DNA from: Bacteroidia bacterium
GTDB taxonomy: Bacteria > Bacteroidota > Bacteroidia > J057
Direction: 5' to 3'
DNA: 64,000 nucleotides
Assembly: GCA_041753595.1 (NCBI GenBank)
Contig: JBGSTW010000013.1
Location: 1 to 64,000, forward strand
Both the position numbers and the translations under genes were made by a program. This document shows, piece by piece, positions 8,757-51,240 of this stretch (positions are counted from its first letter, which is position 1; the number at the start of each line of letters is the position of its first letter). The notes under the pieces are model-generated. The model ran no database searches. It had not been told where the DNA came from and saw only the letters and a list, made by a program, of their open reading frames with translations.

Positions 8757-9210
8757 CCGGCCAATTATCGGAGTTCCAGCTAAATCCGGTTTCTTCTTTT
8801 CTGGAAAAAAGCATCCAGCGCAGCCCGTTGGTAATCACGAGATGGGGAGCGTGAAAAACCTCATTGTACCTCACCACCTGCATCACGGTAGCGTCGGTAA
8901 GGGGCACCTGTGGCTGTTTACATTCGATCAGCATCCAAGGCTTTGCCTGGCGGTCAAACACCACCAGATCGAAGCGCTTTTTTTGCCGGAAATAAGGGAT
9001 GGCCTTTTCTACCCCGATCAGACCCGGCGCAATACCACGGTCCTCTACAAGATGAATCAGCACCTGTTGCCGCACCACTTCTTCGGGTGTCTCTATGATC
9101 CATTTGTTCCGGACCGGATCCCATATCCGCACTTTCCCTTCAGCTTCTGCTCTTTCAAGCACTCTGACGGGTATAGCCCAGGGAGCCGGTCCGGTCCATT
9201 CATCACTCAT
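8746..9210 (-). CDS. standalone HsdR_N-like (type I restriction enzyme R N-terminal, PD-(D/E)xK fold) domain protein
   Basis: 154 aa with the D...ECK motif (VVFDRQAKPWMLIECKQP). Its ATG (9210..9208) overlaps the TGA stop of the upstream S8 protease gene in the sequence ATGAGTGA. Its 3' end overlaps the convergent FecR-like gene by 11 bp. Confidence 0.65.
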   Translation of the reverse strand: MSDEWTGPAPWAIPVRVLERAEAEGKVRIWDPVRNKWIIETPEEVVRQQVLIHLVEDRGIAPGLIGVEKAIPYFRQKKRFDLVVFDRQAKPWMLIECKQPQVPLTDATVMQVVRYNEVFHAPHLVITNGLRWMLFSRKEETGFSWNSDNWPVKE

Positions 9211-12184: not shown

Positions 12185-12223
12185 GGTGTAATTCTTGGTA
12201 AATGAAAAATGAACGACATGCTA

Positions 12224-15172: not shown

Positions 15173-15182
15173 GCTAAAATAA

Positions 15183-18155: not shown

Positions 18156-18329
18156 GAAAGGTAATTGATAATGATCAGAAAGGGGGAAGAGTTGAATTCG
18201 AAAGATAAAACAAGCCCGGCAAAAATTCACCCGATTTCGTGGCATAGGCCCCGCAATATCCATCAACGGTTATAGGTTGGCTTTTCCAGGTTCCTGTCGT
18301 AATTTTCAAAATAAACCATATACAGCCCC

Positions 18330-19237: not shown

Positions 19238-19476
19238 AGACAAAGCGGCTTTTTCTCTGCGTTCTCTGCGATGCCACTGCGTTCTTTGCGTGAACCCACT
19301 CCCTACAAAGTGTGATTAAACGCAGAGGGCGCAAAGGTTTCGCAAAGGGCTTTTTCTCTGCGTTCTCTGCGTGAAACTACGCCCAAGACAAAGCGGCTTT
19401 TCTCTGCGTTCTCTGCGATACCTCAGCGTTCTTTGCGTGAAACTACGCCCCTACAAAGTGTGATTAAACGCAAAGG
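19238..19476. repeat. intergenic structured repeat cluster: two ~88-bp units (period ~148 bp) plus a partial unit, rich in internal inverted repeats
   Basis: Unit 1, ~19238-19325: agacaaagcggctttttctctgcgttctctgcgatgccactgcgttctttgcgtgaa...ctacaaagtgtgattaaacgca. Unit 2, ~19386-19474, is nearly identical. Internal palindromes include ggctttttctctgcg paired with cgcagag, and gcgcaaag paired with ctttgcg. Confidence 0.7.
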
Positions 19477-24200: not shown

Positions 24201-26099
24201 GGTTTCGATCAGCAATTCGAGCTGACGGGCGGCTTCGTCGAGCAGCTTTTCTACCTTATTGGCTTCGGCTACCTTGGTTACGGCTTCAGCTTCTTTGCGG
24301 AGGCGGGCGGCGGTTTCCTGGTATGGCTGCAGGGCTTCGGCTTTCAGCAAAAAAGCCACACAGTCACGGGCCAGGGCCAGCGATTGCGCGCCGATGCGGT
24401 TTTCCCAGTCAGAAAGGGCTTCGAGGTCGGCGTAGCGCAGATCCCGCAGAGTAATCACTTCTCCTTTCAGCCCCCGCAAATCGCTGAGGTAACCGACAAA
24501 TTCCTGCACTTGGCGGGCACCGTGGCGGCGTACTTTGTCGAGCAGGGTCGTAGCTTTTTCTGCAAATGTACCCACCGAATCGCGGGCCAGGGCCTGCAGA
24601 CGGCGCACTTTTTCAAATTCATCTATGGCGGCGGAAGCGGCAGCTTTTACCCCCGTGACCGGCACCGAAAGCTCAAAAGCTTCTTTATTTTTCAGCCAAT
24701 AATACCCGTCGAGGATATCGCCTGCTTTTTTGGATACATCGAGGTAGAGGCTGTTGTAGGGATCGGGTTTTTCGAGCAGGGTAAGCAGCTCGCGGCATTC
24801 GGCCAGGCCTTTCACGAGGTCTTTGTTGCCCACACGTGCCAGCCACGAATCGCTCACGGTATCGGCCGAGGCGGTATCGATGCCGTAAGGGGTCGTCCAG
24901 ACCTGAATCGTGTGCCGCCTGCCGGGCTCGGCTTCGGCCCTGAAATAGCAGAGCTCCCCGCCCGGGAAAAGCGAAAATCCCTGGCAAACAATGGGCGTAT
25001 CGGCCTGCTGGGCCACGAGGTTGTACGGAAAAAGGGTGTAGTCGCCCAGCTCGGGGTTGGTGAACACGTAGAGGAAATCTTCGCCGTTCGGGGAAGTAAT
25101 CCTTTTTTCAAACTGAAGGCCGGGGGGTATTTTTTCAAACACCTTGTAACCGCCCGTTTGGAGGTAAAAACCGCTGGGGAAAATAAGCCCCTGGTTGTCG
25201 GGCAGGAGTACGCAGGCCCCTTGCAGTGCATCGATCCGCACGGCGGTAGCCAGTTTTTCGTTCACCACGATGTAGCGAAAGTCGCGTTCCTGGTAGGGTT
25301 TTACCTTGAGTACGATGAGGTTTCCTACAAAAGCGTAGTAGATCTCAGCGTCGTCCAGGGTCTGGTCGGGCTGGGTGACGGCTTCGGAGAAAATGCCTTT
25401 GCCGGTGTCGGTATTGTCCTCCACCTTCACGGTAAGGTCACCGCCGATGGTTTCTACAAAGATGTGGTCCTCAATGGAAATATGCGGGTGCTTGCCCTTG
25501 CGGTGCATGTCGCGGGTGGTGCGCTTCCACTGAAACTCGTGCTGATCGGGGAAACGAAACTCGTGGTCGAAGCGGTTGCCCTGGTAGTGGAGCTCGTTTT
25601 CGCGTACGGTCCACTTAAAGGTGCGGATGTCGGAGATGGTTTTCCCGGTCTGAAAAACCATGAACAGGTTGGGGCCAATGACCGCAAATTTCGAGAAGAC
25701 CGTTTCTCGGTAGTATTTGTAGAGGTTGTTAAAATCTTCGAGAAAACGAGCGTCTTCGATCATCTCCAGCGAAAGCGGCTTAAAGCTGAAGTCGCTGGTT
25801 TCGAATTGAAAAACGCTGAATACGTCGGCCAGTTTTACTTCTGTCCGCAACCCGATGTGCACATTGTAGCCAAACAAGAGCGTGTCTCCGATCGCGGCCA
25901 TGTCGCGGGGGAGGCAATTGTTGTCGGTGGTGACATGGTTCGTGGCGGCCAGCTTGGGTTCGCGTGCGCCGAAAATTTCTTTCCGGGCGGCGTTCAGCTG
26001 GTCCATACGGCTGCGCAGGTCCTGGGCCTGGGTGTCCAGGCGTTGTTTCAGGATGTCGTAAGCGCCCGTATCGAGCGCCACGTTTTCAGGTTGTGACAT
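21261..26099 (-). CDS. giant (~1612 aa) multidomain protein with a single AAA_5/MoxR-type AAA+ ATPase domain near residue ~1230; function unknown
   Basis: Walker A LLLISPPGYGKTTLVEY. Walker B VMIYLDDIQH. Followed by RRLAIVMAGNPYTESGERFTIPDMLANRADIY, where MAGNP resembles the MoxR/dynein-type NP motif. The N-terminal ~450 aa are beta-rich, the middle ~700 aa are strongly helical, and the C-terminal ~250 aa are helical. ATG at 26099, with a TTG at 26105. Confidence 0.85.
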   Translation of the reverse strand: MSQPENVALDTGAYDILKQRLDTQAQDLRSRMDQLNAARKEIFGAREPKLAATNHVTTDNNCLPRDMAAIGDTLLFGYNVHIGLRTEVKLADVFSVFQFETSDFSFKPLSLEMIEDARFLEDFNNLYKYYRETVFSKFAVIGPNLFMVFQTGKTISDIRTFKWTVRENELHYQGNRFDHEFRFPDQHEFQWKRTTRDMHRKGKHPHISIEDHIFVETIGGDLTVKVEDNTDTGKGIFSEAVTQPDQTLDDAEIYYAFVGNLIVLKVKPYQERDFRYIVVNEKLATAVRIDALQGACVLLPDNQGLIFPSGFYLQTGGYKVFEKIPPGLQFEKRITSPNGEDFLYVFTNPELGDYTLFPYNLVAQQADTPIVCQGFSLFPGGELCYFRAEAEPGRRHTIQVWTTPYGIDTASADTVSDSWLARVGNKDLVKGLAECRELLTLLEKPDPYNSLYLDVSKKAGDILDGYYWLKNKEAFELSVPVTGVKAAASAAIDEFEKVRRLQALARDSVGTFAEKATTLLDKVRRHGARQVQEFVGYLSDLRGLKGEVITLRDLRYADLEALSDWENRIGAQSLALARDCVAFLLKAEALQPYQETAARLRKEAEAVTKVAEANKVEKLLDEAARQLELLIETVGSLPIEDATQTTAIIDRISVLFSEINAIRSALRNRRKDLRKAEASAEFHAQLRLFSQSISNYFELSDSPEKCDEYLTRLTVQLEELDGKFADFEEFATDLALKREEVVQTFEARRVSLVEERNRKSASLADAGDRILKGIRQRLARMESPDEINAYFAADLMAVKVRDLATQLQSLNDPTRATELMSRLQGLREEAVRQLRDRKEIFEDQAHVLKLGNHRFSVQQHPLEATVALQHDQLSYHLTGTRFFEPINDPELDATRPVWSQSLPSENTAVYRAEYLAYKLLETPAFDPLGDTGEQVRTFMADRFQEGYVKGVHDHDATLIVEGLLRLKSGLGLLAYAPSVRTLGRLFLFAGLSAEELPVWKARLEAADAVRKLDIGAAWAAEIKAELQEKVAAFAAAGWGDPQEAAAAVDFLMDISSRSADLPISKLAGTMFKGFFVFLKKIKAATAFQAQVTALENHSVERYRLMLGWVRSYLAKEGIADPYHAAAEVAGLMYIDDWKEKSVHAASSEEVIPGMRGEHKLIEQGSYALDYHGFSGKMRHFDLELAPLFRTFTSLKTRLVQAFTAQIRLDDFRPRPMSGFVRNRLINEVYLPMIGANLAKQIGTADEQSRNDRSGMLLLISPPGYGKTTLVEYVAQRLGLIFMKINGPSLGHQVTSLDPGAATNAAAREELEKLNLAFEMGDNVMIYLDDIQHTHPEFLQKFISLCDAQRKVEGVYKGKSRTYDFRGRRLAIVMAGNPYTESGERFTIPDMLANRADIYNLGDMLGGNESAFRLSYIENALTSNPVLASLASRPQEDLYTLYRLAETGDLAGAEFSSNFSPDELNDAVSVLKKLLVVREVVLKVNQNYISSAAQAEAYRREPPFRLQGSYRNMGRLAEKVSPVMNDTELDVLIMGHYEAESQTLASGAEANMLAFKRMMDRFSEKEKNRWEEICRIFLETKALNADYMAQLVRDIGQFTSHMEAIRKVLEDKS

Positions 26100-26121
26100 G
26101 GCCAAAGGAAGTTTTCAGGGA

Positions 26122-28299
26122 TCAGGAAATGCCCGCCTGGTCGGCTGTTTTGTCGCTGATACCGAGAGATTCGACCACGCCCATGAGCTGCTGCAGCACC
26201 CCGCGCTGCGACTTATCGTTGGTCTGCGCCATCATTTTCAGGATCAGCGCCGACATCGAGAGGTTTTTGAGGTCGTCGGTCGATACCTTAAACTGGGCAA
26301 TAAACTCGCGCAATTTTCCCGTAAACTGGTTGTCGGAGCCGTCGCCAATCAGCTGGTTTTTGAGGCCATTGAGGGTGGAGCTGTGCTCAAAGAGGTTATC
26401 GACGTATTTGGCACTGACGACCGAACGGGTGATGCGGTCGAAGAACTCCTGCTCACCCCCGATGATGTCGATGTTGGCAGATTTGAGGGCTTCGGCGATG
26501 ACCATGGCCTGGGAAGCGGCCACGTCCTTCTGCACGTTGATGCGGGCGAGCTCGACCACTTTCTGCATGTCGAGGCGGAGCTTAAACTCCTCGTGGTCTT
26601 TGCCCACGCCGTCGAGCTGCTTCATGGCTTCGGCTTTGGCCTGTACGCCTTTGGCATCGGCTACGGCTTTGAGCTCGATAACGGTAGCTTCGCTGCGGCC
26701 CATTTTTTCTACGGCAGAGGCTTTCACTTCCGTTACTTCGGCTTCTACCTTGCCTTGTTCCGATTTCAGGGCGTTTTCGGTTTGTCCGAGGCGCTGGTTG
26801 GCATCGGCCTGGGCTTCGCCTTTGAGCTGTATGCCCTGGGCTTCGGCTTCGGCTTTCATGCGCAGCACATTGGCTTCCGCAAAACCTTCTTTTTCCTTGG
26901 CATGGGCCTTGGCTTCGAGCACGCGGGCTTCGGCTAGTCCGAGGGCGGCATGTTCTTCGGCCACGGCATCGGCCATTATTTTTTTGGCTTCGGCGTCCTT
27001 GTCCACGGCTTCGCGCTCGGCGGTAGCCACGATCAGGCGGGTTTGAGATTCGAGCTGGGCAGCTTCTTTTTGGGCTTCAGCGCCTTTTATTTTCACCACC
27101 AATTGCTCCTGAGCCTTTTGCTCGGCGGCGAGGATAGCTACCTTTTTGGAGCGCTCGGCCTCGGCAAAAGCAGAGGTATCTTTTATTTTTTCCTGCTCTT
27201 CTACCACGGCACGCTCCACCACCACGCGGTCGCGGATCACGTCCTGGATATTTTTCTTTTCCTCCTCCACGGCCTTTTCTTTGCCGATCTGCGCAATGGC
27301 CACGATGCGTTCGCGGTCGGTAGATTCGAGCTGGCGGTCGCGCTCCACTTTTTCGCTTTCTACGGCCAAGGTGCGCTCTTTGCTCTTCTGGGCCACGATC
27401 ACGTCGCGGGTTTTATTCTGCTCTTCGATGTCGATCTCCCGCTCGCGGGCGATGCGGGCGCGCTCGGATTTGGTCAGCTCTTCCTGCTGCACCCGCTTGA
27501 TTTCGGCTTCTTCGCGTGCTTTTACCGAGGCAACCTCCCGCTTCTGGATTTCTTCTTTTTCTGAAAGCTGGCGATTCAGCTCCAGAATGGCTTCCTGGGC
27601 TTCTACGTCCTGGCGCTTGATTTCCTTTTCCTTGTTGCGCTGAATTTTGTTGGCGAGGGTAATCTGGTGGCTGGTCAGCTCGCGGATTTTCTTGATACCC
27701 TCGGCGTCGAGGATGTTGTTTTCGTTGAGGAAGTCGATGGGGGTTTGCTCCAGGAAGTCGATGGCGCAGTCGTCGAGTACGTAGCCGTTGAGGTCGCGGC
27801 CGATGAGGTTCATGATTTCTTCGCGGAATTTTTCGCGGGCGTTGTACAGCTCCACAAAATCAAACTTCTTGCCCACGGTTTTGAGGGCTTCGGAGAACTT
27901 GGCTTCGAACAGGAGATTGAGCAGCTCGTGGTCGGAGGCACGGGCACAGCCGATGGTTTGGGCTACCTTCTTCACGTCGTCCACCGTGGGATTTACCCGC
28001 ACAAAAAATACCACCTTGATGTCGGCCCGGAGGTTGTCTTTACAAATAAGGCCCTCTTTGCCTTCGCGGGAAATCATCACCTGCTTCAGGGATATCTCCA
28101 TGGTTTCGGCATTGTGCAGGAGCGGGATGACCCACATACCTTCAAAAGCGACTCGGGTATTGCCGTAGCCGGTGCGCACCAGGGCTTTTCCCTGGGTTAC
28201 TTTTCGGTAAAAAAGGGAGATCAACGTCACGTAGCCAAAAATGGCCACCAGTACAATGACGCCGAAAATGATCCCAATGTTGAGTAGGAGGTTGTTCAT
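26122..28299 (-). CDS. flotillin-family SPFH/Band-7 protein (long form, 725 aa)
   Basis: N-terminal TM helix IGIIFGVIVLVAIFGYVTLI. The SPFH domain spans RTGYGNTRVAFEGMWVIPLLH...TQ. A long E/K/A-rich coiled-coil follows, then a flotillin C-terminal region. Confidence 0.9.
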   Translation of the reverse strand: MNNLLLNIGIIFGVIVLVAIFGYVTLISLFYRKVTQGKALVRTGYGNTRVAFEGMWVIPLLHNAETMEISLKQVMISREGKEGLICKDNLRADIKVVFFVRVNPTVDDVKKVAQTIGCARASDHELLNLLFEAKFSEALKTVGKKFDFVELYNAREKFREEIMNLIGRDLNGYVLDDCAIDFLEQTPIDFLNENNILDAEGIKKIRELTSHQITLANKIQRNKEKEIKRQDVEAQEAILELNRQLSEKEEIQKREVASVKAREEAEIKRVQQEELTKSERARIAREREIDIEEQNKTRDVIVAQKSKERTLAVESEKVERDRQLESTDRERIVAIAQIGKEKAVEEEKKNIQDVIRDRVVVERAVVEEQEKIKDTSAFAEAERSKKVAILAAEQKAQEQLVVKIKGAEAQKEAAQLESQTRLIVATAEREAVDKDAEAKKIMADAVAEEHAALGLAEARVLEAKAHAKEKEGFAEANVLRMKAEAEAQGIQLKGEAQADANQRLGQTENALKSEQGKVEAEVTEVKASAVEKMGRSEATVIELKAVADAKGVQAKAEAMKQLDGVGKDHEEFKLRLDMQKVVELARINVQKDVAASQAMVIAEALKSANIDIIGGEQEFFDRITRSVVSAKYVDNLFEHSSTLNGLKNQLIGDGSDNQFTGKLREFIAQFKVSTDDLKNLSMSALILKMMAQTNDKSQRGVLQQLMGVVESLGISDKTADQAGIS

Positions 28300-29833: not shown

Positions 29834-30119
29834 GACAGACGAAATTCAGCGCTAGAGGGGATATCAAGATTAATAGTACTTGCGGGATTATCAGGATTGT
29901 TTTCCGCGATTTTCAAAGGTTTAATCTCAGCATTTTTCGCAGACCACTTTCTTTTGGGTAGTACCCATGGCTTTGTTCCTTCCGCCAAAAGATGGGTAGT
30001 AGCACGCACGATTTGCTGGACGAATTGCTCCTGAGACTCACCCTGGACTAAAAACTATAGATCACTCCGCAGCTTACGAAAAATCCGGCGGCCCGCCACC
30101 CAGGCGGCAGCCCACGCAC

Positions 30120-31418
30120 TCATAAATAGACCATCGCCTGCAGGCGCAGCAAAGCATGGGAAGGGGTACGGGTCAGCAGGCCGGGTTCCCGTTGGTGCTG
30201 GTATTCCAGGGTGAGCTTTGCATGGTGCCCGTCGATGTACCAGTTGACCCCGCCGCCCATCATGCGGCCGATCGGCTCCCGGTATGCGCGGTAGGCCTCC
30301 AGGTCGCGGTGAGTAAGATGGATATAGGCTTGCAGCCGTCCCCGGTCCGTGAAGGCAGGTAGCAAATAGCCCAGCTGCCCAAACAGGATGGTGCCCGTGC
30401 CGACACCACCCACGCCGCCGGTCCAGTTGGGACCCCAGTCGTGCCGCACCGCAGAACCGTAGGCGGTAATTGCCGCGCCGCCCGTTCCCAGCGGACTGTC
30501 ATAAAACACATCCACCGCCAGCGAGGTGGGGTTGTAAAAAGTCAGTTGGCCTGCCTCATCACAGGAGGTCGCCCCGGCCACGTGGTGGAAGAATCCCACG
30601 CCGATATTGAAGACCTTCCGGGTGCCGAGGTAGCTTCCCGTAAAGTAGGGCAGCAGGTTGCTCTCCTGCTCCAGCAGCTGATAATTGACATAGCCCTGGT
30701 ACACCTTACCTCCGCCGGGATTTTCAGGATTGCGGTAGATCACCCGGTCCGGAACGAGGATTTCTGTCCCGGTATCGTTGGGGGCTGTATGCTTGTCGTA
30801 GCCCCGGCTGGGGTTACTGATGGCTTCGTTGATTGCCAGGCGGTAATCCAGTCTCCCGAGCTTGCCCTTGGCAAAAAAGCCGAGGTGCCGGGCAAACTGG
30901 TCGGTGGTACCGATCGTGGGCCAATTGTGAATAGGCGCATCGAGGGTCAGCATATTGAGGGTACTCTGACTGGTGAGGCGGGAAATGCCGTTCCAGTAAT
31001 GCAGGCCGCCTCCCAGGTCCAGCTTGCCCTTAAGCACGGCATACTGGACCCAAGCATCGTGGAGGAAGAGTTGACCGGACTGGCCGGGCTCTCCCACAGG
31101 ACCATTGGCGCCCATGTTGTCCGGGCCGAGGTTGTTCAGCCCAAAATGCGTATTGATCAAAAAACGATCATTGATTTGCGCATACATCAGCACACGTGAC
31201 CGCCGAAGCAGAAAATCCGTTTGCAGCTGATTCTGGTCGTCCTTTTGTGCCGTAGCCCAAACCTGGTGCCAGCTGATCAGGCGAAAGTACTTACTGCCGT
31301 TCTCGTTGAGCGGGACAGTCAATCCGCCGGTATAATCAGGAGAGCCCTGCCCCCGCAGGGGGGAGATCAGGGCTGCGAGCCCCGGTATCAGTAGAATAAA
31401 GAGAATATTCCGGCGCAT
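30120..31418 (-). CDS. outer-membrane porin-like beta-barrel protein
   Basis: Signal peptide MRRNILFILLIPGLAALISPLRG. Amphipathic beta-strands alternate throughout, and the sequence is rich in G/N/Y/W. Confidence 0.5.
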   Translation of the reverse strand: MRRNILFILLIPGLAALISPLRGQGSPDYTGGLTVPLNENGSKYFRLISWHQVWATAQKDDQNQLQTDFLLRRSRVLMYAQINDRFLINTHFGLNNLGPDNMGANGPVGEPGQSGQLFLHDAWVQYAVLKGKLDLGGGLHYWNGISRLTSQSTLNMLTLDAPIHNWPTIGTTDQFARHLGFFAKGKLGRLDYRLAINEAISNPSRGYDKHTAPNDTGTEILVPDRVIYRNPENPGGGKVYQGYVNYQLLEQESNLLPYFTGSYLGTRKVFNIGVGFFHHVAGATSCDEAGQLTFYNPTSLAVDVFYDSPLGTGGAAITAYGSAVRHDWGPNWTGGVGGVGTGTILFGQLGYLLPAFTDRGRLQAYIHLTHRDLEAYRAYREPIGRMMGGGVNWYIDGHHAKLTLEYQHQREPGLLTRTPSHALLRLQAMVYL

Positions 31419-31914
31419 AGGATCGAATTTTGTAAAAAAACGGGGCAGGAAGAGTGATTTACGATGAACTTACAGCTGCTATTTCGAAGCAGGAGATCCT
31501 GTAAAATAGGGCCTTTGACTCCGCCCGGCGCTCCCATCAGGTAAGGCAGGCAGGTGATTTTTATCACGGATAGCTATGACTTTGCTTACCTGATATCAGA
31601 AAGGCTGGATGCTCCTTTTTGAAATACTTGCCAGCGCCATACATCCGGGGGATTCATGGTTGACAGCGCCCGAACGTACAAAAAACTTCTTCTGAGCGAA
31701 TCCTCGAAGCAGGCCAGCGAAATCCTTCTATCCCTCTCGCATCCCTGCCTCATGCGGTTCACGCTCCCTGATCTCTCATAAAATCCTTCATGGCGTACAT
31801 CTTCACCCCTCAACAGTTGCTTTTCACCCCCTTGGTACTTAGCGGATTCGCTACTTTGGCATTCCGTTACTGAATCAACAGAATCCTCCCCAATACTTCT
31901 CATTCCCTTTATCT

Positions 31915-32934
31915 ATGACACTTCCTCTTACTCCCATCCGCAATGGTTTCCTCGCGACCTTGCTCTTTGCCACGGCTGGTCTTTGCCAAACACGTGCCTT
32001 TGGACAAAGCCAATTGACGGCCATTGAAACAACTGAAACTATGACCATCGATGGACTGGGAAATGAGGCGATCTGGTCGGCAGCCACCTGGTATCCGATT
32101 GATCAGACCTGGATCGGAACACCGCCCTCCTCAACAGATTTTTTGGGCAAATTCAAGGTTGTCTGGGATCAAAACTTCCTCTATGTGCTCACAGAAATCA
32201 CCGATGAAATATTGAGCGACGACCACCCCAATCCGCTAACCAATTGGTGGGACGACGACGGGATTGAGATCTTCCTCGACGAAAACTTCTCCAAAGGCAA
32301 TCATCAATTCAACTACAATGCCTTTGCCTATCACGTGAGCACGTTCTATGATGTGGTGGATCTCGGAACTGACCAAAATCCGCATTTATACAACGACCAT
32401 ATCACCACGGTCCTGAGCAATTCCGGGACGGTATATACCTGGGAGTGCAGGATAAAAATATTCAACGACCAATTTGTCTATGGTGGCAACAACACGCCGG
32501 TGTCTCTAAACGCAAATAAAATCATGGGCTTCTCCATGGCCTACAATGACAATGACGCCGGCACTTCGCGCGAAAACTTCATGGGTTCCGGAGTCGTGCC
32601 CGGCACAGATAAGAATGTTGGCTACCTCACGGCAGATTATTTTCAGCAACTGACGCTCGTGGCTTCCGGTGCGTCGTCCATCTCTCCCGAAAATGCTTTG
32701 GCATTGGGGGTAAAGGTCTATCCCAACCCCGCATCTGACCGATTCACCCTCGACCTCGAACATCCGCGTTGGGAGAACCTCGGGCTCTTTTCGATCACCG
32801 GAAAGCAGGTGCTGAACCAGGAAATTCGTGGCTTGCAACAAGTACAGGTGAATGTGGCCGATTTTCCGCCGGGGATCTACCTCTTGAAGGTGAGCGGCGC
32901 GCAGATCGCCACAACCAAATTGCAGATAAAATAG
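31915..32934 (+). CDS. CBM9-like carbohydrate-binding domain protein with T9SS C-terminal sorting domain
   Basis: Signal peptide. The CBM9/DOMON-like region is W/D-rich: NWWDDDGIEIFLDENF. The C-terminal sorting domain reads VKVYPNPASDRFTLDLEHP...GIYLLKVSGAQIATTKLQIK. Confidence 0.75.
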   Translation: MTLPLTPIRNGFLATLLFATAGLCQTRAFGQSQLTAIETTETMTIDGLGNEAIWSAATWYPIDQTWIGTPPSSTDFLGKFKVVWDQNFLYVLTEITDEILSDDHPNPLTNWWDDDGIEIFLDENFSKGNHQFNYNAFAYHVSTFYDVVDLGTDQNPHLYNDHITTVLSNSGTVYTWECRIKIFNDQFVYGGNNTPVSLNANKIMGFSMAYNDNDAGTSRENFMGSGVVPGTDKNVGYLTADYFQQLTLVASGASSISPENALALGVKVYPNPASDRFTLDLEHPRWENLGLFSITGKQVLNQEIRGLQQVQVNVADFPPGIYLLKVSGAQIATTKLQIK

Positions 32935-32960
32935 CGGGCGCATTGCTCACAACCTGATTG

Positions 32961-33049
32961 CCGACCTGGCTTTTCGTCGGCGACTGAAGCTCGCCGGTAC
33001 AGGTTAGTACGGGCGGGCTTCAGTCGCCCAGCGTGGGGGGCGGGCGGAA
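32961..33049. repeat. small dispersed repeat with an internal 12-bp perfect inverted repeat; second copy at ~37865-37937
   Basis: The shared ~48-bp core ccgacctggcttttcgtcgg(c/a)gactgaagctcg(c/g)cggtacaggttagtac is about 90% identical between the two copies, and both also share gggggcgggc. In the copy at ~32961-33049 (copy 1), ggcgactgaagc (~32979-32990) pairs with gcttcagtcgcc (~33017-33028). Confidence 0.7.
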
Positions 33050-33298
33050 ACAAATGTTTAGCGACGTATTCGACCATTGAAAATCCAGTCTTTTTATTTT
33101 AAAACGGAGGGCTAGCTCACCTTGAAGATCGCTATTGGGTGATACATGTTCCCGGAAAAGCGGGTGTTTGTTTATTTCACAGGAAGACGCCATGCCGCGA
33201 AGAATTAGGCGTTTGGGACGTGCGCTGTTGTTAAGGAAAAAGCCTTGTTTTTTCGCAGACCCCATTCATTCAGGCATGCTCCCTTCCGGTAAAGTCCC

Positions 33299-34285
33299 TC
33301 AATTTCCCGCCTTGATCCGCCGTTCTTTCACCTCGCGCCAGGTGGTGAGGATAAAGCCTTCTTCAGACAGAAAGGTGCGCAGGCGCGGGTCGAGCATGGC
33401 CAGCAAATCGCCCTGACGGGTGGGGCCGGAGTCGGAGATATGGGCAAAAACCTCTGTGGGGTCGGTGCAATGCATGATGACCATCGTGAGGCCGGGCTCC
33501 ACCTCGCGCAGGGTTTCCATATAGTGATCGGCGGTAGCGCGCTGGAGTTTTTTGGGATTGGCAGCAATGGCAGGCGCAATCTCCCAGCCGTAGCTGAGGT
33601 TGTGCAGGTCGTCGAGCACGGGCAGGCCCGCCGCCCATACCTGCTCGCCCAGGGCGCGGATAGGCTCCAGGTCCATGGGGTTGGTACGCGAAACCAGCTT
33701 GCAATTTCCCGCCGGAAACATCACCGGGATGCCGGTTTCCATGCCCAGCTGCAGGTAGCGCATCAGAAAATCGGGCGTGGCAAAGAGGGTGCCCATGTGC
33801 GAATCGAGGTGGGTAGGCTCGAAACCCATGGCGCGGGCACGGGCAAGCTGGGCGCGGATTTCGGCATCCACTTCGTCGGCAGAGGCGTGTTGCACCACGG
33901 CTTCTATCGAGGGCCAAAGGGCACCTTCGGCATCGGTCAGGCCCGGAGCAGCGGGTTTGCCCGTGAGGGGACCCCAGCGGTAATCGGCCCATTCGGAGGT
34001 GAGGGTCAGGTGCAGGCCTGCGTCGAGGCCAGGGTTTTCTTTCAAGGCATGCACAAAACCGGGTGTCCAGGGGCAGGGCATCATCACACTCACAGAGGTG
34101 GCCACGCCTTGGGTAAGAGCCTGGAGTGCGCCCTCGTTCGAATCCCAAGACATGCCCGCATCGTCCACGTGCAGAATCAGCACCCTGGCACCGGCAGGAA
34201 ATCCCAGCCGCTCGGCATAGGTAGGTTGGGCGAAAAGCCCGGCACAAATGGCCAGGAAACAAAGGAAGGAAAAGGCGTTTTTCAT
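33299..34285 (-). CDS. YdjC/ChbG-family carbohydrate deacetylase-like secreted protein
   Basis: Signal peptide. The motif LILHVDDAGMS matches the H.DD.G signature of the YdjC-like family. There are also His-rich metal motifs DSHMGT and MHC. Confidence 0.65.
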   Translation of the reverse strand: MKNAFSFLCFLAICAGLFAQPTYAERLGFPAGARVLILHVDDAGMSWDSNEGALQALTQGVATSVSVMMPCPWTPGFVHALKENPGLDAGLHLTLTSEWADYRWGPLTGKPAAPGLTDAEGALWPSIEAVVQHASADEVDAEIRAQLARARAMGFEPTHLDSHMGTLFATPDFLMRYLQLGMETGIPVMFPAGNCKLVSRTNPMDLEPIRALGEQVWAAGLPVLDDLHNLSYGWEIAPAIAANPKKLQRATADHYMETLREVEPGLTMVIMHCTDPTEVFAHISDSGPTRQGDLLAMLDPRLRTFLSEEGFILTTWREVKERRIKAGN

Positions 34286-34368
34286 GGTTGGGGGGGTTTA
34301 AGCGAATATTCACAAAACCGCCACAAAAAACAATGCGTCCCGCCTGCTCCCGTACGGGTTGCCCGATA

Positions 34369-35505
34369 TCACCCCAAATTCCCGATCTCTTTCAGCGGCA
34401 AAACGGTGATATTTTCTGCCAGCGCATACCGCTGCCCTCCGGGGTAGAGGACGTAGAGGTGCGCTAATTGGAGGTCGTCGATGGACTGGTGCATGGATTT
34501 GGTGAGCCGGGGCGCATCGAGGTATTTAAATTCGGCTCCCGTGGGTTTTCCTTTTTCGAACCAGAAAAGGTCGAGCTCCAGCCCGGCGTGCGATCCATAA
34601 AAATAGACCTCGTTTTCGCGCTTATTCAGTTGAGCAACGGTTTCTTCGAGCGCAAATCCCTCCCACGAGGCACCCAGCTTGGGGTGACTTCGGAGCGCCT
34701 GAAGGGTTTCGATGGATTGAAGCGCGTGGAAAATACCCGAGTCGCGGATATAGAGTTTGGGGCTTTTGACGAGGCGCTTGTTGGTATTGGTATGCCACGG
34801 CATCAGGAGCCGCACCATAAAGGTATCTTCGAGGATAGAAAGGTAATGCTTCACGGTTTTTTCGCTGATGCCAAACGACCGGCCCAATTCGGCATAGTTG
34901 AGGGTCTGCCCGTGGTAATGGCTCAGCATGAGCCAGAATCGGTACATCACCGGCGCAGGAATGCGGATACCCAGCGCTGCGAGGTCTTTTTCCAGAAACT
35001 TGGAGATGAAATTAGCACGCCAAAGCATGCTTTGCCCGTCCGTTTGCGCCAGAAAGGACCTCGGAAAACCGCCCCTGATCCACCGCGACTCCCAGTAGTC
35101 GGTTCCCGTTTCGGCCAGATTAAAACCTGTGAGGTAGTGGTAGCCAATGCGCCCGGCCAACGATTCGCCGCTTTGTTGCCGCAAACTGGAGGAAGCACTT
35201 CCCAGAATCAGGTAGCGCTGCGCAGGCTGGTTATCGACAAGGTAGCGCAACAGCGGAAACAGCTCGGGCATAAGCTGCACTTCGTCGATCATGATTAGCC
35301 CCCGGAGGCCCTCCAGCGTCAGTTGCGGGTTTTGGAGCGCCACGCGGTCCCGCGGATTTTCGAGGTCGAATTGGTGGTCCGGGGAAAAGGATTTCGCCAG
35401 GGTAGTTTTCCCTACCTGCCGTGGTCCCAAAATGGCCGTGATGGGAAAAACGCCCAACAGGGCCGAAACCGCGTCCTTGTCCTTTTTGCGTGCAATGGCT
35501 TCCAC
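34369..35505 (-). CDS. AAA+ ATPase of the DUF4143 (AAA_14) family
   Basis: Walker A ILGPRQVGKTTLAKSF and Walker B LIMIDEVQ. The C-terminal region is DUF4143-like. The start is a GTG at 35505. Confidence 0.85.
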   Translation of the reverse strand: MEAIARKKDKDAVSALLGVFPITAILGPRQVGKTTLAKSFSPDHQFDLENPRDRVALQNPQLTLEGLRGLIMIDEVQLMPELFPLLRYLVDNQPAQRYLILGSASSSLRQQSGESLAGRIGYHYLTGFNLAETGTDYWESRWIRGGFPRSFLAQTDGQSMLWRANFISKFLEKDLAALGIRIPAPVMYRFWLMLSHYHGQTLNYAELGRSFGISEKTVKHYLSILEDTFMVRLLMPWHTNTNKRLVKSPKLYIRDSGIFHALQSIETLQALRSHPKLGASWEGFALEETVAQLNKRENEVYFYGSHAGLELDLFWFEKGKPTGAEFKYLDAPRLTKSMHQSIDDLQLAHLYVLYPGGQRYALAENITVLPLKEIGNLG

Positions 35506-35602
35506 GGGGAGTACTTTGCCCGTAAATTACCATTTATCCTTGAAAATCCGGACTTTACCTCCGGATTTTCAAGGATCTTTTTTAGGAAATGCCCCTTTTA
35601 AC

Positions 35603-36247
35603 CTACTTCGATAGGCGGTAAATAGCCGACACCTCTGCCTGAGCGTATTGCCTGGGCCATGCGTTGTCGTCGAAACTGTAGTTGTAGCTGCCCGCGATTC
35701 CGAGGTCTAGGTTTGGCACAATAGGCCAGCGTAATTCGAATCCACCTGTAAAATATCCCCGGTATGGATCTTGAGCTTTTCCCCAATATGTGGTTCTCCT
35801 TGCCGAAAATTTATCAAAAGTATAATACCGCCCTCCTCCAATTAACCAACTGGGCAAATAGCCGAGCGAAATACGGAACTGCCCCCGGTTATTTTCAGCA
35901 GCAGACAAGCGATAGGAGAGTTTTACAGGCGTTTGGAGGAAATAATCCAGCGAGGCTTGAGACTTTGGGCAGCCGGGAAGGTCGCCCAGCCAACCCGTAT
36001 CACAGACATAGTTTTTCCCGGATTGCTTTTCTTTAAATGTGGAAAAAGTGGCACCAACCGAAACACCTAGCCTTCCCAATAACTGCGTCTCATAGCCCAG
36101 CGCCAGGCCATGTCCGAAGGTGAGAAGGTCCGAATTGCCCTTTGGATAATGGTAATAGGTGGTGGTAATGCCCAGGCTCAGAGATTGCTGGCCCCAAAGC
36201 GGGCTCAGTAGCATTCCAAGGAGTAAGAAGAAGATTAAGCGTCTCAT
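35603..36247 (-). CDS. small outer-membrane beta-barrel protein (paralogue A)
   Basis: Signal peptide, then GQQSLSLGITT. The C-terminus ...WPRQYAQAEVSAIYRLSK ends K rather than the usual aromatic residue, which is atypical for a beta-barrel. The last ~20 codons and ~12 nt of the downstream flank are nearly identical to paralogue B. Confidence 0.6.
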   Translation of the reverse strand: MRRLIFFLLLGMLLSPLWGQQSLSLGITTTYYHYPKGNSDLLTFGHGLALGYETQLLGRLGVSVGATFSTFKEKQSGKNYVCDTGWLGDLPGCPKSQASLDYFLQTPVKLSYRLSAAENNRGQFRISLGYLPSWLIGGGRYYTFDKFSARRTTYWGKAQDPYRGYFTGGFELRWPIVPNLDLGIAGSYNYSFDDNAWPRQYAQAEVSAIYRLSK

Positions 36248-36368
36248 TATGATGATGTTTATTTAGGAAGAAATAATAGAGAAGTAAGATTCAGACAGCG
36301 TCCATAAGACAACATACAATCGCTTATCGAACCATTTGATTTTACTGCCCTCCTTTCAAATTTTGAAA

Positions 36369-36384
36369 CACGGTTTAAACCGTG
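36369..36384. promoter_or_regulatory. perfect 16-bp palindrome cacggtttaaaccgtg between the two beta-barrel paralogues
   Basis: Read directly from the sequence. It lies ~50 bp downstream of the stop of gene 36435..37079 and is flanked by T/A-rich sequence. It could be an operator or a terminator stem. Confidence 0.4.
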
Positions 36385-36434
36385 AGGAGTGCCCGGGTCG
36401 AACCCATCCTGTGATTATCCATAGAGGTGAAAGC

Positions 36435-37079
36435 CTACTTCGATAGGCGGTAAATGGCCGACACCTCTGCCTGAGCGTATTGCGTGGGCCATTTTTTTTT
36501 CTGGAGCGAAAGAAAATAACTGCCTTCAAACCCCACGCTGAGCTTTCGTCCCAGCGGATGGCTAAACGCTACCCCGCCTGTCCAGTAATTAATGCGCCGA
36601 TATCTGGGCGTAAGCCCGGACCAATGGGATTCATAATAATTGGGGTAGTGCTTGAACTTAGCCTTTAAAGCGATACCTTCTAAATTACTCGGCATATAAC
36701 CAAGGAAAAGGCGGGTTTGCCAGTTCTCGTTTTTAAGTGAGGACAATCTATAAGTTAACCTGAGGGGTACCTGAAAACGATAGGAGTAGTACATTTCAGC
36801 CGTTGGGCAAGAGGGACCTGGGGGAGAAAAACCGCGATCACAGATGAGATTGCGACCGGTATATTTACCTTTAAAGGCATTGAAATTAGCTCCTACGGAC
36901 ATCCCAAACCGCCAGAAAAGCTTCGTGTCAAATGCCAGCGTCACGCCATGCCCGGCAGATAAGTAGTCAGCTCTTTCTTCGTGGGAGTAGATAGTCGTAA
37001 TGCCCAGGCTCAGGGATTGCTGGCCCCAGGCCGAAAGGGTCAAAACCGCAAGCAGCAGGGTGAGGTAAAATGGTTTCAT
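36435..37079 (-). CDS. small outer-membrane beta-barrel protein (paralogue B)
   Basis: Signal peptide MKPFYLTLLLAVLTLSAWGQQSLSLGITT. The C-terminus is WPTQYAQAEVSAIYRLSK. Confidence 0.6.
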   Translation of the reverse strand: MKPFYLTLLLAVLTLSAWGQQSLSLGITTIYSHEERADYLSAGHGVTLAFDTKLFWRFGMSVGANFNAFKGKYTGRNLICDRGFSPPGPSCPTAEMYYSYRFQVPLRLTYRLSSLKNENWQTRLFLGYMPSNLEGIALKAKFKHYPNYYESHWSGLTPRYRRINYWTGGVAFSHPLGRKLSVGFEGSYFLSLQKKKWPTQYAQAEVSAIYRLSK

Positions 37080-37377
37080 TAAGGATATGGTTAACTAATT
37101 ATAGATTCAAGAATAGGGGATTATACACCCGGCATTTTTCTCAAAAAACCAAAACGCCCATTGCCTGATGTTAAGGTTGAGAATATAGGAATAATATCAG
37201 CGTATTCTCAGGTTTTTTTGTCAAACAAAATGACCAACCGTTAATCGCCCTGTTACCCGATAAGGTCCCAATCCCCCTGAGCCGTTTTTCTATTTCGGGG
37301 TGTTGCTTTATATGCTAAAATCACCCTTGCTTGCTTTTGGAAACGGAGAACGATAATTTGAAAGATATCCTCCGCCC

Positions 37378-37752
37378 ATGAATTACCGCATCCTTACCCT
37401 CCTCTTCGTTATTAGCGGTTTGGCCCAGGGGCTGAAAGCCGATCCGCCGCGCAATATCGTGTATATCCTCGCCGACGACCACCGCTTCGATTTTATAGGC
37501 TTTAAGGGCAAAGTTCCCTGGCTGAAAATGCCCAACCTCGACCGCCTGGCGCGGGAAGGGGTGTATGCGCCCAATACCTACGTCACCACTTCGCTGTGTT
37601 CGCCAAGCCGGGCCTCGATCCTCACGGGGCTTTTTTTGGGGCGGGTATCAAACCCGCCGTTATTGAGTGGCACAGCACGCGGATTGGCAGGGCCAGCGAT
37701 CCTTCGCAGTGGGTTCTATACCCACCTACTATTGGCGGCAGAATGCCCCTGA
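37378..37752 (+). pseudogene. sulfatase N-terminal remnant (~88 aa of authentic sulfatase sequence) truncated by repeat sequence
   Basis: Signal peptide, then VYILADDHRFD and the sulfatase signature CSPSRASILTG. The reading frame then runs into the ~95-bp repeat and terminates. No sulfatase C-terminal part is present. Confidence 0.65.
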
Positions 37753-38032
37753 ACTGCTTCGCGCTAAAATCGGGGGGATGCGTTTTTCTATAATCCGGGC
37801 ACCCCTGACGGGGTTTTCGGAGTGGATGATTTTGGGGAGGATGCGCAGAATAGCTTTTTCAGGGCCGACCTGGCTTTTCGTCGGAGACTGAAGCTCGGCG
37901 GTACAGGTTAGTACACGCGAGGTTGGGGGCGGGCTTTTTTTTGGGAGCGGGTGTCAAACCCGCCGTTATTGAATGGCGCGTCACGTGGATTGGCAGGACT
38001 GGCGATCCTTCGCGGTGGGTTTGATACCCACC
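37631..38032. repeat. pair of ~95-bp direct repeats (~37631-37726 and ~37935-38032) flanking a copy of the small dispersed repeat
   Basis: The two copies are about 85% identical. Each contains a T-run followed by the hairpin ggcgggtatcaaacccgcc, written g(a/g)gcgggt(a/g)tcaaacccgcc across the two copies. Confidence 0.7.
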
Positions 38033-38147
38033 AACAACGATGGGGGGCAGATGATTTTGCTAGTAGCACCCCCCTGCAATTCCCCCTTTCGTCTTTTTTC
38101 CCTAGCTTCCCCTTTTCTCCGAAACCCCTGACTATCCGAAAACCGGA

Positions 38148-40346
38148 ATGAACGCCCCTTACCCTGCCTCCGGCTGGTTTTTTCGCTGCTTGCTGCTCGC
38201 TTTGGCGGCTGGCGGGCTGCTCCCACGCGCGCAGGCACAAACCGACCGCACGCCCAACCGTGCGGGCTACGTGCTGCACATCCATAAAGCCGCAGGCACC
38301 TTCCACATCGACGGGCAGCTCGATGAGCCCGACTGGCTCAGCGCCGAGGTAGCGGGCGATTTTTGGCGGGTGCAGCCCATCGACACGGGCTACGCCACCA
38401 CCACCACCGAGGTGCGCATGAGCTACGACGACCGCAACCTCTACTTCGGCATTGTCTGCCACGAGCGCGTGCCCGGCCCCAACATTATCGCTTCGCTGCG
38501 CCGCGATTTTGGATTCGGCGCCAACGACAATTTTCTCCTATTTATCGACACCTACAACGACCAAACGAACGGCTTCTCCTTCGGTGCCTCGGCAGGCGGT
38601 GCGCAGTGGGACGGCATCCAGTCCAACGGTGGCACGGTGGCCCTCGACTGGGACTGCAAGTGGACCTCGGCCGTGAAGCAGTACCCCGATTACTGGATCA
38701 TCGAGATGCAGGTGCCCTTCCGCAACCTCCAGTTCAAGGAGGGGATCGATCAATGGGGCATCAACTTCAGCCGCATGGACGTGAAGGCGAACGAAAAGTC
38801 GAGCTGGGCGCCCGTGCCCCGGCAGTTTGCTACCGCCAACCTGGGTTTTGCGGGCACGCTGCAGTGGGATGCGCCGCCGCCCAAGTCCAAAGGCAATTTT
38901 TCGCTCATTCCCTATGTCACCGCGCGGAGTTCGCACGACTACGTGCTCGACGACCGCAAGCCGTTTACGTCCAACGCGGGCATCGACGCCAAGATAGCGG
39001 TGTCGCCCACGCTCAAGCTCGACCTCACCCTCAACCCCGATTTTTCGCAGGTGGACGTGGACGAGCAGCAAACCAACCTCGACCGCTTCGAGCTGTTTTT
39101 TCCGGAAAGGCGGCGTTTTTTCCTCGAAAACCAGGACGCATTCACGGGCTTCGGCAAAGACAACCTGCGTCCGTTTTTCTCGCGGCGCATCGGCCTCACC
39201 AGCCCCGTGCAGGCGGGCTTGCGCCTCAGCGGCAAAATCAACGAAACGGTGCGCATCGGCCTGCTCGATATGCAAACGGTTGCGAACGCGGTAGCTCCGG
39301 CAGCGAATTTCACGGTGGCTTCGATTCAAAAAAAGGTCTTCGCCCGGTCAAACATCGGGGTGTTTGTGGTGAACAAGCAGCTCACCGCGCCGGAATCGGC
39401 CAGCCCCGACAGCCTCAACCGCTACAACCGCGTGGTGGGCATCGACTACAACCTGGCCAGTGCCAACAGCCGCTGGACCGGGAAGTTCTTCGCGCATAAG
39501 TCGTTTACGCCCGCAGGCGAGGCGCAATCGATGGTAGCCTCCGCCAACCTCGCCTACAGCACCCCGCAGTGGCTGATCAGCGGTGCTTACGACCAGGTGG
39601 GCGCCAATTTTGTGGCGGAAACGGGTTTTTTTCGCCGCACGGGACTGCACCTTACCGAGGGATCGGTGGGCTACCGCTTTTATCCGCATTCTAAAACCGT
39701 CGTCAACCACGGCCCCACGGGCAGCGTGCAGTATATTTTTGATCCGGCCTTCAAAAAAACGGACCACCTCTGGCAGGCTTCCTACGCCCTGGTGATGCTC
39801 AACCGCAGCGAAATGAAGCTCACCTACAGCGCGCAGTTTATCCGGCTGCTCGCGCCTTTCGATCCTACGCGGTCGGTAGGTATTTTCCTCGAAGAAGGCA
39901 CCGAGTATCAATGGAAAAGCCTGGCATTCAGTTATTTATCCGACGCCAGGAAGTTGTTCAATTACTCCTTCACCACGGGCTACGGCGGTTTTTACCACGG
40001 CAACCGCTTCAATGCCCAGGGCCAGGTAAACTTCCGCTTTCAGCCCTACGGCAGCATCGCCCTCAACGTGACGTACAACAACCTGCAGTTTCCGGAGCCG
40101 TACCCCGACGTCGATTTTTTCCTCATCGGCCCCAAACTCGACCTCACGCTTTCCACCAAACTGTTTTTTACCACGCAGGTCCAGTACAACGAGCAAATCA
40201 AAAACATGAACACCAATATCCGCCTGCAGTGGCGCTACAAGCCGGTTTCGGATCTGTTCATCGTGTACTCCGACAACTACCTGCCCCAACCCTGGAATGT
40301 GAAAAACCGGGCGCTGGTGGTGAAGCTGTCGTATTGGTTTAACTGA
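38148..40346 (+). CDS. DUF5916-like secreted protein: N-terminal CBM9-like carbohydrate-binding module plus a large beta-rich C-terminal domain
   Basis: Signal peptide MNAPYPASGWFFRCLLLALAAGGLLPRAQA. The CBM9-like segment is HIDGQLDEPDWLSAEVAGDFW...NLYFGIVCHE. The C-terminal half is long and beta-strand-rich. Confidence 0.7.
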   Translation: MNAPYPASGWFFRCLLLALAAGGLLPRAQAQTDRTPNRAGYVLHIHKAAGTFHIDGQLDEPDWLSAEVAGDFWRVQPIDTGYATTTTEVRMSYDDRNLYFGIVCHERVPGPNIIASLRRDFGFGANDNFLLFIDTYNDQTNGFSFGASAGGAQWDGIQSNGGTVALDWDCKWTSAVKQYPDYWIIEMQVPFRNLQFKEGIDQWGINFSRMDVKANEKSSWAPVPRQFATANLGFAGTLQWDAPPPKSKGNFSLIPYVTARSSHDYVLDDRKPFTSNAGIDAKIAVSPTLKLDLTLNPDFSQVDVDEQQTNLDRFELFFPERRRFFLENQDAFTGFGKDNLRPFFSRRIGLTSPVQAGLRLSGKINETVRIGLLDMQTVANAVAPAANFTVASIQKKVFARSNIGVFVVNKQLTAPESASPDSLNRYNRVVGIDYNLASANSRWTGKFFAHKSFTPAGEAQSMVASANLAYSTPQWLISGAYDQVGANFVAETGFFRRTGLHLTEGSVGYRFYPHSKTVVNHGPTGSVQYIFDPAFKKTDHLWQASYALVMLNRSEMKLTYSAQFIRLLAPFDPTRSVGIFLEEGTEYQWKSLAFSYLSDARKLFNYSFTTGYGGFYHGNRFNAQGQVNFRFQPYGSIALNVTYNNLQFPEPYPDVDFFLIGPKLDLTLSTKLFFTTQVQYNEQIKNMNTNIRLQWRYKPVSDLFIVYSDNYLPQPWNVKNRALVVKLSYWFN

Positions 40347-50258: not shown

Positions 50259-51240
50259 TTATTTGGAGGTCTCGAAGTGTTCTTTGTTGGCGCCAGCGAT
50301 TTTCTCTACTGTGCCGAGCACTTTCTCAAAGCCCGCACGGGTGTAGTAGCCAAGGCGGGTATTGCCGGTGGGTACATCTTTTGGCAGGAATCCGAGATAT
50401 TTCAGCGACTTGAATACGCTCCCTTTCACGAGGTCGTGGTGGGGGAAGCCCGGCTCTGTACAACCCAGGCAAGGGTGATTGGCGCGGGTTTTGGACGACT
50501 GGCGGTTCCAGAGAATACGGTTACAACTGGCGCGCGTCATGGGTCCACGACACCCTACTTCGTAAAAGAGGCATCCGCCACGCTTGCCAAAATGTCCGTC
50601 CACTTTTTCGGCAAAGCTGATGGCATTGGGGCAGCCGGTTTGCACGAAGTCGGTAAAGAAGGTTTTTGGTCGGTGGAAAGAATCGAGGAGCACATCTCCT
50701 ACCCTGCCCGTGGCAATGGCTACCAGAATCTGGGTAATCCAGTCGGGGTGTGCCGGGCAACCGGGTATATTGATTACGGGCAAGCCGCCTTTGGATACAT
50801 AATTTTCACCCAAAAATCCCCCCTTCTTGTCCTTATGAAACTGCATACCGGTTGACTCGCTTGGGTTTGGCGGAACGGCCGGAATGCCCCCCCCAGGTAG
50901 CGCAGTCGCCGATAGCCACCACAAAAGCAGCTTTTTTCGACAACTCCTGCACCCAGTCCTTCATGGGGCGGTCGCAGAAATAGTTCATCGTTCCGGTGCC
51001 GTGTGGCCCGTTAATGATAGAGCCCTCGTACACCAGGATATCCAGCTGGACCTTTTCCTTTTTGATGTCCTCCATAAGGTCGGCTACCTGATGGCCAATC
51101 TCAAGACCAATAGAGGGATGCCATAAAATATTGACACCGAAATCGGTGACCAATTCTACAACCGTAGGCTCTTCTGCATTGAGGAACGACATGGTATTCC
51201 CGCTGCATGCACCGCCTTGAAGCCAAAGCACATTTGCCAT
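50259..51240 (-). pseudogene. [NiFe]-hydrogenase small subunit lacking a Tat signal and interrupted by a +1 frameshift in a G8 homopolymer (C8 on the plus strand, ~50887-50894)
   Basis: The N-terminal ORF 50833..51240 reads MANVLWLQGGACSGNTMSF ... AIGDCATWGG. The C-terminal ORF 50259..50924 reads IPAVPPNPSESTG...INIPGCPAHPDW...CLGCTEPGFP. Removing one G joins them as ...DCATWGGIPAVPPNP.... Confidence 0.8.

Follow-up and report, generated by a model that had tools for sequence, protein, structure and literature searches.

We analysed a 64-kb stretch of DNA, hereafter the window, from a member of the Bacteroidota that probably belongs to the Saprospiraceae. A gene encoding CBM9 and T9SS sorting domains (31915-32934, plus strand) is convergent with a gene for a YdjC-family carbohydrate deacetylase (33299-34285, minus strand). 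The 364-nt gap between them contains a short repeat that we call D6. Copy 1 (32960-33047, plus strand) is an intact imperfect palindrome of 86-88 nt which begins 26 nt past the CBM9 stop codon. Copy 2 (37864-37934, plus strand) is decayed, 71 nt long and in the same orientation, with a start-to-start spacing of 4904 nt (~4.9 kb). The minus strand between the two copies carries the YdjC gene, an AAA_14/DUF4143 ATPase gene and two tandem genes for paralogous outer-membrane-like proteins of 214 aa, and the plus strand carries a 124-aa open reading frame (ORF; 37378-37752) in which the N-terminal part of a sulfatase gene survives. Copy 2 lies between the two copies of another palindromic repeat, D4. 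The first of these, D4A (37631-37729, plus strand), is a decayed palindrome; the second, D4B (37937-38035, plus strand), is an intact palindrome with terminal inverted repeats of about 17 nt (GGGTGTCAAACCCGCCG / CGGTGGGTTTGATACCC), and a T8 run joins D6 copy 2 directly to it. The next gene encodes a DUF5916/CBM9-like protein (38148-40346, plus strand), 214 nt past the end of D6 copy 2 and 113 nt past D4B.

The two 214-aa paralogues (35603-36247 and 36435-37079, minus strand) are 832 nt apart and have no Pfam or NCBIfam match. They are diverged overall, with their last 59 nt (35602-35660 and 36434-36492) 97% identical, which hints at gene conversion or constraint on the C-terminus.

A whole-window repeat search, together with reading of both sites, revealed that positions 32960-33010 recur at 37864-37914 in direct orientation, with 49 of 51 bases unchanged. 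The chance expectation for such a match in 64 kb is about 1e-17 (a uniform-composition estimate). The left boundary is sharp, the sequences 5' of the G at 32960 and 37864 being unrelated, and the tail GGGGGCGGGC is present in both copies (33036-33045 and 37925-37934). An earlier note on this DNA, made from sequence alone, had described a small dispersed repeat, present at least twice, with a common core of ~48 bp and a G-rich tail. The repeat and its tail are confirmed; two copies only 4.9 kb apart do not show that it is dispersed. Sensitive blastn (word size 7) and nhmmer profile searches found exactly two copies in the window, and nothing between or beside them was co-duplicated. An inverted match at 476-513, which is 71% complementary and lies within coding sequence, was treated as a chance resemblance (nhmmer E = 0.15).

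In a gapped alignment, copy 2 differs from copy 1 by two substitutions in the left 51 nt. After a common GTAC it has four substitutions within 10 nt, and its right arm carries a 15-nt deletion (CAGTCGCCCAGCGTG) relative to copy 1. Divergence between the copies is thus uneven (2/51 on the left versus 4/10 on the right, Fisher p = 0.005), a pattern better explained by decay specific to the palindrome, or by patchy repair, than by ageing at a uniform rate.

Two independent Logan assemblies, L007 (SRR28170468) and L017 (SRR28170466), are 100% identical to the window across D4A, D6 copy 2 and D4B, so this arrangement is not an artefact of assembly or binning. Both contigs run unbroken through all three repeats. 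Since Logan contigs contain each 31-mer once by construction (PMC12424806), this argues against other near-identical copies of D4A, D6 copy 2 and D4B in those samples, although the argument would leave room for copies less than about 90% identical.

Folding of D6 and the terminator question

The centre of D6 copy 1 is a hairpin (32979-33028, plus strand) with arms of 22 nt (32979-33000 and 33007-33028) that are 91% complementary and enclose a 6-nt loop, AGGTTA. It is the strongest local inverted repeat in the window. A 12-bp perfect stem had been recognised earlier in copy 1 (32979-32990 with 33017-33028); it is genuine and represents the outer part of these larger arms. Folded as RNA, the central hairpin reaches -43.7 kcal/mol (z = -10), and the whole copy 1 unit (86-88 nt) forms one long hairpin of -61.5 kcal/mol (z = -8). 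This fold is closed at its base by pairs 32961-32963 with 33045-33047, which are also the ends of the repeat. Because the boundaries of the repeat match the base of the extended hairpin, the unit of duplication in D6 is also the structural unit. D4 presents a parallel case, its repeated unit being bounded by the 17-nt inverted termini of D4B, for which the RNA fold is -50.4 kcal/mol (z = -4.9).

In D6 copy 2 the stem is reduced to 10 bp with a bulge (-12.4 kcal/mol, z = -1.1) and folds no better than shuffled sequences. The right arm of copy 2, which had been described as lost, has 15 nt deleted and four positions substituted; the tail is retained.

In both intact palindromes, D6 copy 1 and D4B, the plus strand folds about 12 kcal/mol better than the minus strand, via G-U pairs, which make up several of the plus-strand pairs of D6. 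DNA folding parameters ranked the two strands of D6 in the same order as RNA parameters. The outer 15 pairs of D6 require six G-U pairs, and the outer pairing is weak under DNA parameters. Since the plus strand is the sense strand of the upstream genes, the plus-strand advantage from G-U pairing fits transcription through the palindromes. A small alternative 5' hairpin (32961-32980, plus strand; CCGAC-N10-GTCGG), seen in the minus-strand fold, is conserved in both copies of D6. The tetranucleotide CGTC (32975-32978 and 37879-37882), which each copy has immediately before the main stem on its 5' side, can also pair inside this small hairpin.

The earlier suggestion that the hairpin could be a terminator is weak, as there is no U-tract after the stem on either strand. 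Like intrinsic (Rho-independent) terminators, copy 1 is a G+C-rich stem-loop located soon after a stop codon and between convergent genes. Unlike them, it has a stem far longer than usual and no T-run on either strand, the stem being followed by CAGCGTGGGG on the plus strand and GACGAAAAGCC on the minus strand. A terminator scan of the window did not list the copy 1 hairpin. A canonical bidirectional terminator (A-tract, stem and T-tract; AAAAAGGCCGTCAGG / CCTGGCGGCCTTTTT) is present between convergent genes at 62239-62275 and provides an internal standard for the appearance of terminators in this genome. Another structure that looks like a terminator, a perfect 17-bp hairpin (ATCCTTGAAAATCCGGA / TCCGGATTTTCAAGGAT) with a 7-nt loop followed by CTTTTTT, lies at 35536-35576 between the DUF4143 ATPase gene and the first 214-aa paralogue.

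The sulfatase remnant and the D4 repeat

The sulfatase remnant matches its Pfam and NCBIfam profiles over residues 25-86 only, corresponding to positions 1-61 of 301 in the Pfam profile and 3-66 of about 500 in the NCBIfam profile. The first ~86 codons are kept, including the signal peptide and the motif CSPSRASILTG, and the remaining 38 codons read into D4A. Sulfatase homology ends at residue 86-87, at about nt 37636, where D4A starts; D6 copy 2 begins 228 nt beyond this break. The break is therefore associated with D4A and not with D6 copy 2. The position of copy 2 at a broken gene had been put forward in the earlier note as a sign of mobility, an argument that fails on these coordinates, and the case illustrates that proximity to a broken gene does not by itself show a repeat to be mobile.

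D4A and D4B are 85% identical and 306 nt apart. The junction between the sulfatase remnant and D4A (GGGGC-T7) and that between D6 copy 2 and D4B (GGGC-T8) have a microhomology in common. Judging from these junction sequences, this suggests that the sulfatase gene lost most of its length through a deletion that had its end point at such a junction and may have been microhomology-mediated.

No further copies of D4 were found in the window, viral contigs, plasmids and phages, or relatives' loci. Five matches of a D4 19-mer to viral contigs were discarded, since each falls within the coding sequence of an unrelated phage gene and the similarity stops at the word itself. D4 is also not a diverged sulfatase motif, the likeness being superficial and without CxPxR, nor a tRNA relic (ARAGORN made no prediction, and the tRNA-Sec match had E = 9.9). 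To look for copies that had been spuriously translated, the ORF spanning D6 copy 2 and D4B was compared by phmmer with 1.84 billion representative proteins; the only matches were three unrelated repetitive proteins.

Distribution and probable nature of D6

We compared the window with its nearest sampled relatives. The named best matches of the DUF5916 protein are from Flavilitoribacter nigricans and from Saprospiraceae or Phaeodactylibacter MAGs (~70% identity), which points to an uncultured lineage of Bacteroidota, probably within the Saprospiraceae. All nine window proteins that were tested are themselves in the protein collection, and eight of them are singletons at 90% identity. The nearest carrier of the CBM9 gene (L004) is 84% identical at the nucleotide level and that of a 432-aa gene (L006) is 88% identical; the nearest YdjC carriers (L018 and L019) are at 77% nucleotide identity and the nearest DUF5916 carriers (L009-L011) at about 71% amino acid identity. 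Each of these carriers has just the one gene in common with the window and has unrelated flanks, on both sides in the case of L004, L006, L018 and L019 (window positions 30117-31595, 31913-32933 and 33291-34226). Neither D6 nor D4 is present in the flanks of the nearest relatives' CBM9, 432-aa, YdjC and DUF5916 genes, and D6 was not found in about 150 kb of relatives' loci. As the relatives' sequence outside the genes is dissimilar and lacks D6, the repeat is no conserved feature of the 3' region of the CBM9 gene or of the YdjC gene; for the same reason, neither empty nor filled D6 sites could be scored by comparing orthologous sites. The left 51 nt of the two D6 copies are 96% identical, compared with 77-88% nucleotide identity in the relatives' genes, so the duplication is young relative to the divergence of these relatives. 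From the sequences compared, it would appear either that the host lineage has an unusually labile gene order or that these genes travel one by one.

Downstream of the YdjC orthologue in L018, positions 1130-2024 contain three small AT-rich ORFs, two of which have weak matches (one to DUF7684, the other to the integron-cassette family Hfx_Cass5). The interval showed no attC-like hairpins.

Searches for D6 beyond the window and these loci were negative. The left 20-mer gave only three chance matches in 185,579 species-representative genomes, all in coding regions of unrelated, GC-rich bacteria (Rhizobium, Thermomicrobiales and Actinomycetota). Two D6 patterns (a 28-mer and a 22-mer) had no match in JGI metagenomes, a 16-mer from the apex had none in viral contigs, and blastn in 'distant' mode had none among plasmids and phages. 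D6 matched no Rfam family at gathering thresholds or at a permissive E = 10, the best score being 23.5 bits against a threshold of 50 bits. Pfam and NCBIfam scans of 39 ORFs across the 64-kb window detected no transposase of any class, no Y1/RAYT transposase and no integrase, and ARAGORN found no tRNA or tmRNA gene in the window. Neither copy is flanked by a target-site duplication (TGATT/AAACA at copy 1, TCAGG/TTTTT at copy 2).

D6 was then set against known families of small palindromic repeats. REP and REPIN sequences are repetitive extragenic palindromes mobilised by RAYT tyrosine transposases (PMC3116915, PMC3337134). Like these, D6 is non-coding and extragenic and, in copy 1, lies downstream of a gene and between convergent genes; the unit folds into one long hairpin in the size range of REPINs (roughly 70-110 nt), and a decayed copy accompanies an intact one, just as singleton or decayed copies occur beside intact REP/REPIN copies. 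D6 differs from them in the tag next to the stem, which in REP/REPIN sequences is a conserved, unpaired GTAG, whereas neither D6 copy has GTAG or CTAC flanking the stem and both have CGTC instead. Furthermore, the arms of D6 are not each a small REP palindrome as in REPINs, and the D6 lineage is not a classic REPIN host. REP/REPIN families have tens to hundreds of copies per genome and are accompanied by a RAYT gene (Y1, IS200/IS605-like) flanked by the repeat; the 64-kb window showed two copies of D6 and, among the 39 ORFs scanned, no RAYT gene.

CGTC-tagged REPs occur in several phyla including the Bacteroidetes, with no dedicated transposase known (Di Nocera et al. 2013, PMC3733652). Both copies of D6 resemble them in having CGTC immediately 5' of the main stem, and D6 is likewise extragenic and downstream of a gene. 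CGTC REPs have stems of 8-9 bp that start with A/T pairs, loops of 4-5 nt and a CCA-like tail (PMC3733652). D6 instead has a 22-nt, G+C-rich arm starting with GGCGAC, a 6-nt loop and a G-rich tail, so that it fails the structural definition of these REPs, and its CGTC can also pair in the small 5' hairpin. Bacterial MITEs that fold into hairpins, such as ERIC, Correia/NEMIS and the Porphyromonas gingivalis MITE (PMC4596501), are similar to D6 in size (about 70-150 nt) and in being imperfect, intergenic palindromes that are foldable when transcribed and lie near other small repeats. In contrast to MITEs, D6 lacks a target-site duplication. Its outer ends are inverted repeats if G-U pairs are allowed, without clear terminal repeats at the DNA level (D4B, by comparison, has clear 17-nt inverted termini); no parent insertion sequence was found in the window or in the plasmid, phage and viral collections, and the available sequence holds two copies. 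Integron attC sites bear RYYYAAC and GTTRRRY cores at their ends, their cassettes point one way and an IntI gene is close by; both cores are missing from the D6 ends, the neighbours of D6 are in mixed orientation and no integrase was found. Attachment sites of integrative elements are direct repeats, as are the D6 copies, around a block with an integrase gene and often at a tRNA gene, but here there is neither an enclosed integrase nor a tRNA gene. D6 should therefore be assigned to no named family; the most apt description is that of a small palindromic repeat, REP/MITE-like and new.

We tentatively favour, at a probability of about 45%, the interpretation that D6 is a lineage-restricted, low-copy, non-coding palindromic element of REP/REPIN/MITE type, represented by one intact and one decayed copy in a rearranged region. 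The two halves of the 86-nt unit pair into one long hairpin. Copy 1 is intact and occupies a typical safe site, shortly after a stop codon and between convergent genes. Copy 2 is decayed and lies in degenerate DNA beside the sulfatase remnant and the unrelated palindromic repeat D4; long palindromes being unstable, it may have lost part of its right arm after copying. Copying to the second site would have occurred in trans, through an enzyme encoded outside the window or through recombination, and probably after the split from the nearest sampled relatives. The element, if it has any present effect, may act by giving the CBM9 transcript a very stable stem-loop at its 3' end. Such a stem-loop, which is not a canonical U-tract terminator, could stop 3' exonucleases or keep transcription of the convergent gene from reading through. 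The position of copy 1 supports a REP-like reading, because REP-type repeats are reported to prefer sites after a stop codon and between convergent genes (PMC3733652). Decayed singletons beside intact units are common in REPIN-type families (PMC3116915). The interpretation in the earlier note is thus partly supported. A small palindromic element that was copied to a second site is the likeliest single reading, given that the repeated unit is the palindromic unit and that copy 1 has a REP-like site, but none of the usual signs of mobility was seen: no target-site duplication, no transposase, RAYT or integrase in the window and no third copy in our searches.

The main rival is that D6 was never mobile and is the scar of a local rearrangement. 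A one-off duplication or illegitimate recombination, during the rearrangements that also gave rise to the D4 pair and the tandem 214-aa paralogues and cut short the sulfatase gene, would have copied an intergenic palindrome along with its surroundings. All three repeat pairs of the region (D6, D4 and the paralogues) fall within 32.9-38.1 kb, and that D6 is visible only as two copies 4.9 kb apart in such a region counts against our preferred interpretation; two random sites in 64 kb would lie 4.9 kb or less apart ~15% of the time. Also counting against a mobile element and agreeing with a scar are the lack of target-site duplications and of a transposase, RAYT or integrase gene in the window, the lack of further copies in the searched genomes, metagenomes, viral contigs, plasmids, phages and relatives' loci, and the Logan contigs that pass unbroken through copy 2 (PMC12424806). 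The outermost ends of D6 are poor inverted repeats at the DNA level, pairing only via G-U, which again counts against an element, and the microhomology at the two junctions is as expected of illegitimate recombination. On the other hand, an arbitrary duplication is not expected to match the boundaries of a hairpin, and here the repeated unit is the palindromic unit both in D6 and in the adjacent D4. Sharp repeat ends at palindrome ends would not be expected twice from random breakpoints, and for this reason we favour a palindromic element over a segmental duplication. The absence of any co-duplicated sequence between or beside the copies and the concentration of differences in the right arm, which fits palindrome-specific decay better, also speak against a scar. 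We regard a scar as a possible explanation, though a less probable one.

It seems improbable that D6 is primarily a functional RNA, that is, a cis-acting 3'-UTR stem-loop or small RNA under selection on the plus strand, which protects or terminates the CBM9 transcript and is disabled in copy 2. The extreme stability of the hairpin (z = -8 to -10), its location 26 nt past the CBM9 stop codon and the better folding of the plus strand by 12 kcal/mol through G-U pairs would all be consistent with such a role. Against it, D6 matches no Rfam family even at E = 10, has no U-tract on either strand in a genome that uses canonical terminators (62239-62275), and shows no conservation in relatives behind their CBM9 or YdjC orthologues; moreover, the stem of copy 2 is no better than shuffles. 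Least probable is that the copies are the attL and attR sites of a decayed 4.9-kb islet (33048-37863, comprising the YdjC gene, the DUF4143 ATPase gene, the two outer-membrane-like paralogues and the sulfatase remnant), since, although 51-nt direct repeats in the same orientation bracket this block, gene order around every tested gene differs from that of relatives and removal of the block would make two CBM9-type genes adjoin, the enclosed ORFs include no integrase or recombinase, the window has no tRNA gene, the composition of the block is not uniform (GC 0.43 to 0.65), no relative shows an empty site and there are no phage or plasmid matches.

A bolder version of the palindromic-element interpretation is that D6 and D4 offer a first sight of two uncharacterised families of palindromes, both mobile and transcribed, in an uncultured Saprospiraceae-like lineage, moved by a transposase encoded elsewhere in the genome. 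We think this unlikely; if it were true, the G-U bias of the plus strand would reflect a role at the RNA level, for example in protecting transcript 3' ends. Should D6 prove to be a multi-copy family, it would add REP/MITE-like palindromes to a poorly studied lineage of Bacteroidota and could be used there to follow genome plasticity and differences between strains. As it stands, D6 is an ordinary-looking short non-coding repeat for which the searches revealed neither movement nor function, and its significance beyond annotation is small. It marks a locally rearranged region with a gene remnant, tandem paralogues and two small palindromic repeats.

Several other features of the window were recorded. 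Three tandem paralogous genes of about 1000 aa each (9203-18266, minus strand) have a period of ~3 kb and account for repeat families D1-D3 and D7; the first of them (9203-12184), which was scanned, encodes an S8 peptidase with PKD and T9SS sorting domains. An intergenic tandem duplication at 19240-19470, upstream of a SnoaL-like gene, has a period of 147 nt, is 89% identical over 53 nt and is made up of repeated CTGCGTTCTYTGCG motifs together with the inverse of these motifs. Two large, uncharacterised genes that form a pair at 21261-28299 (minus strand) encode a 1614-aa DUF3686 / DUF7902 / AAA ATPase followed by a 725-aa protein with no Pfam match. The small subunit of a NiFe-hydrogenase (50259-51240, minus strand) is split between overlapping frames, an N-terminal part at 50833-51240 and a C-terminal part at 50259-50924, and this reflects either a frameshift in a pseudogene or a sequencing error carried into the assembly. 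The adjoining genes for the NiFe-hydrogenase large subunit and the HycI protease look intact.
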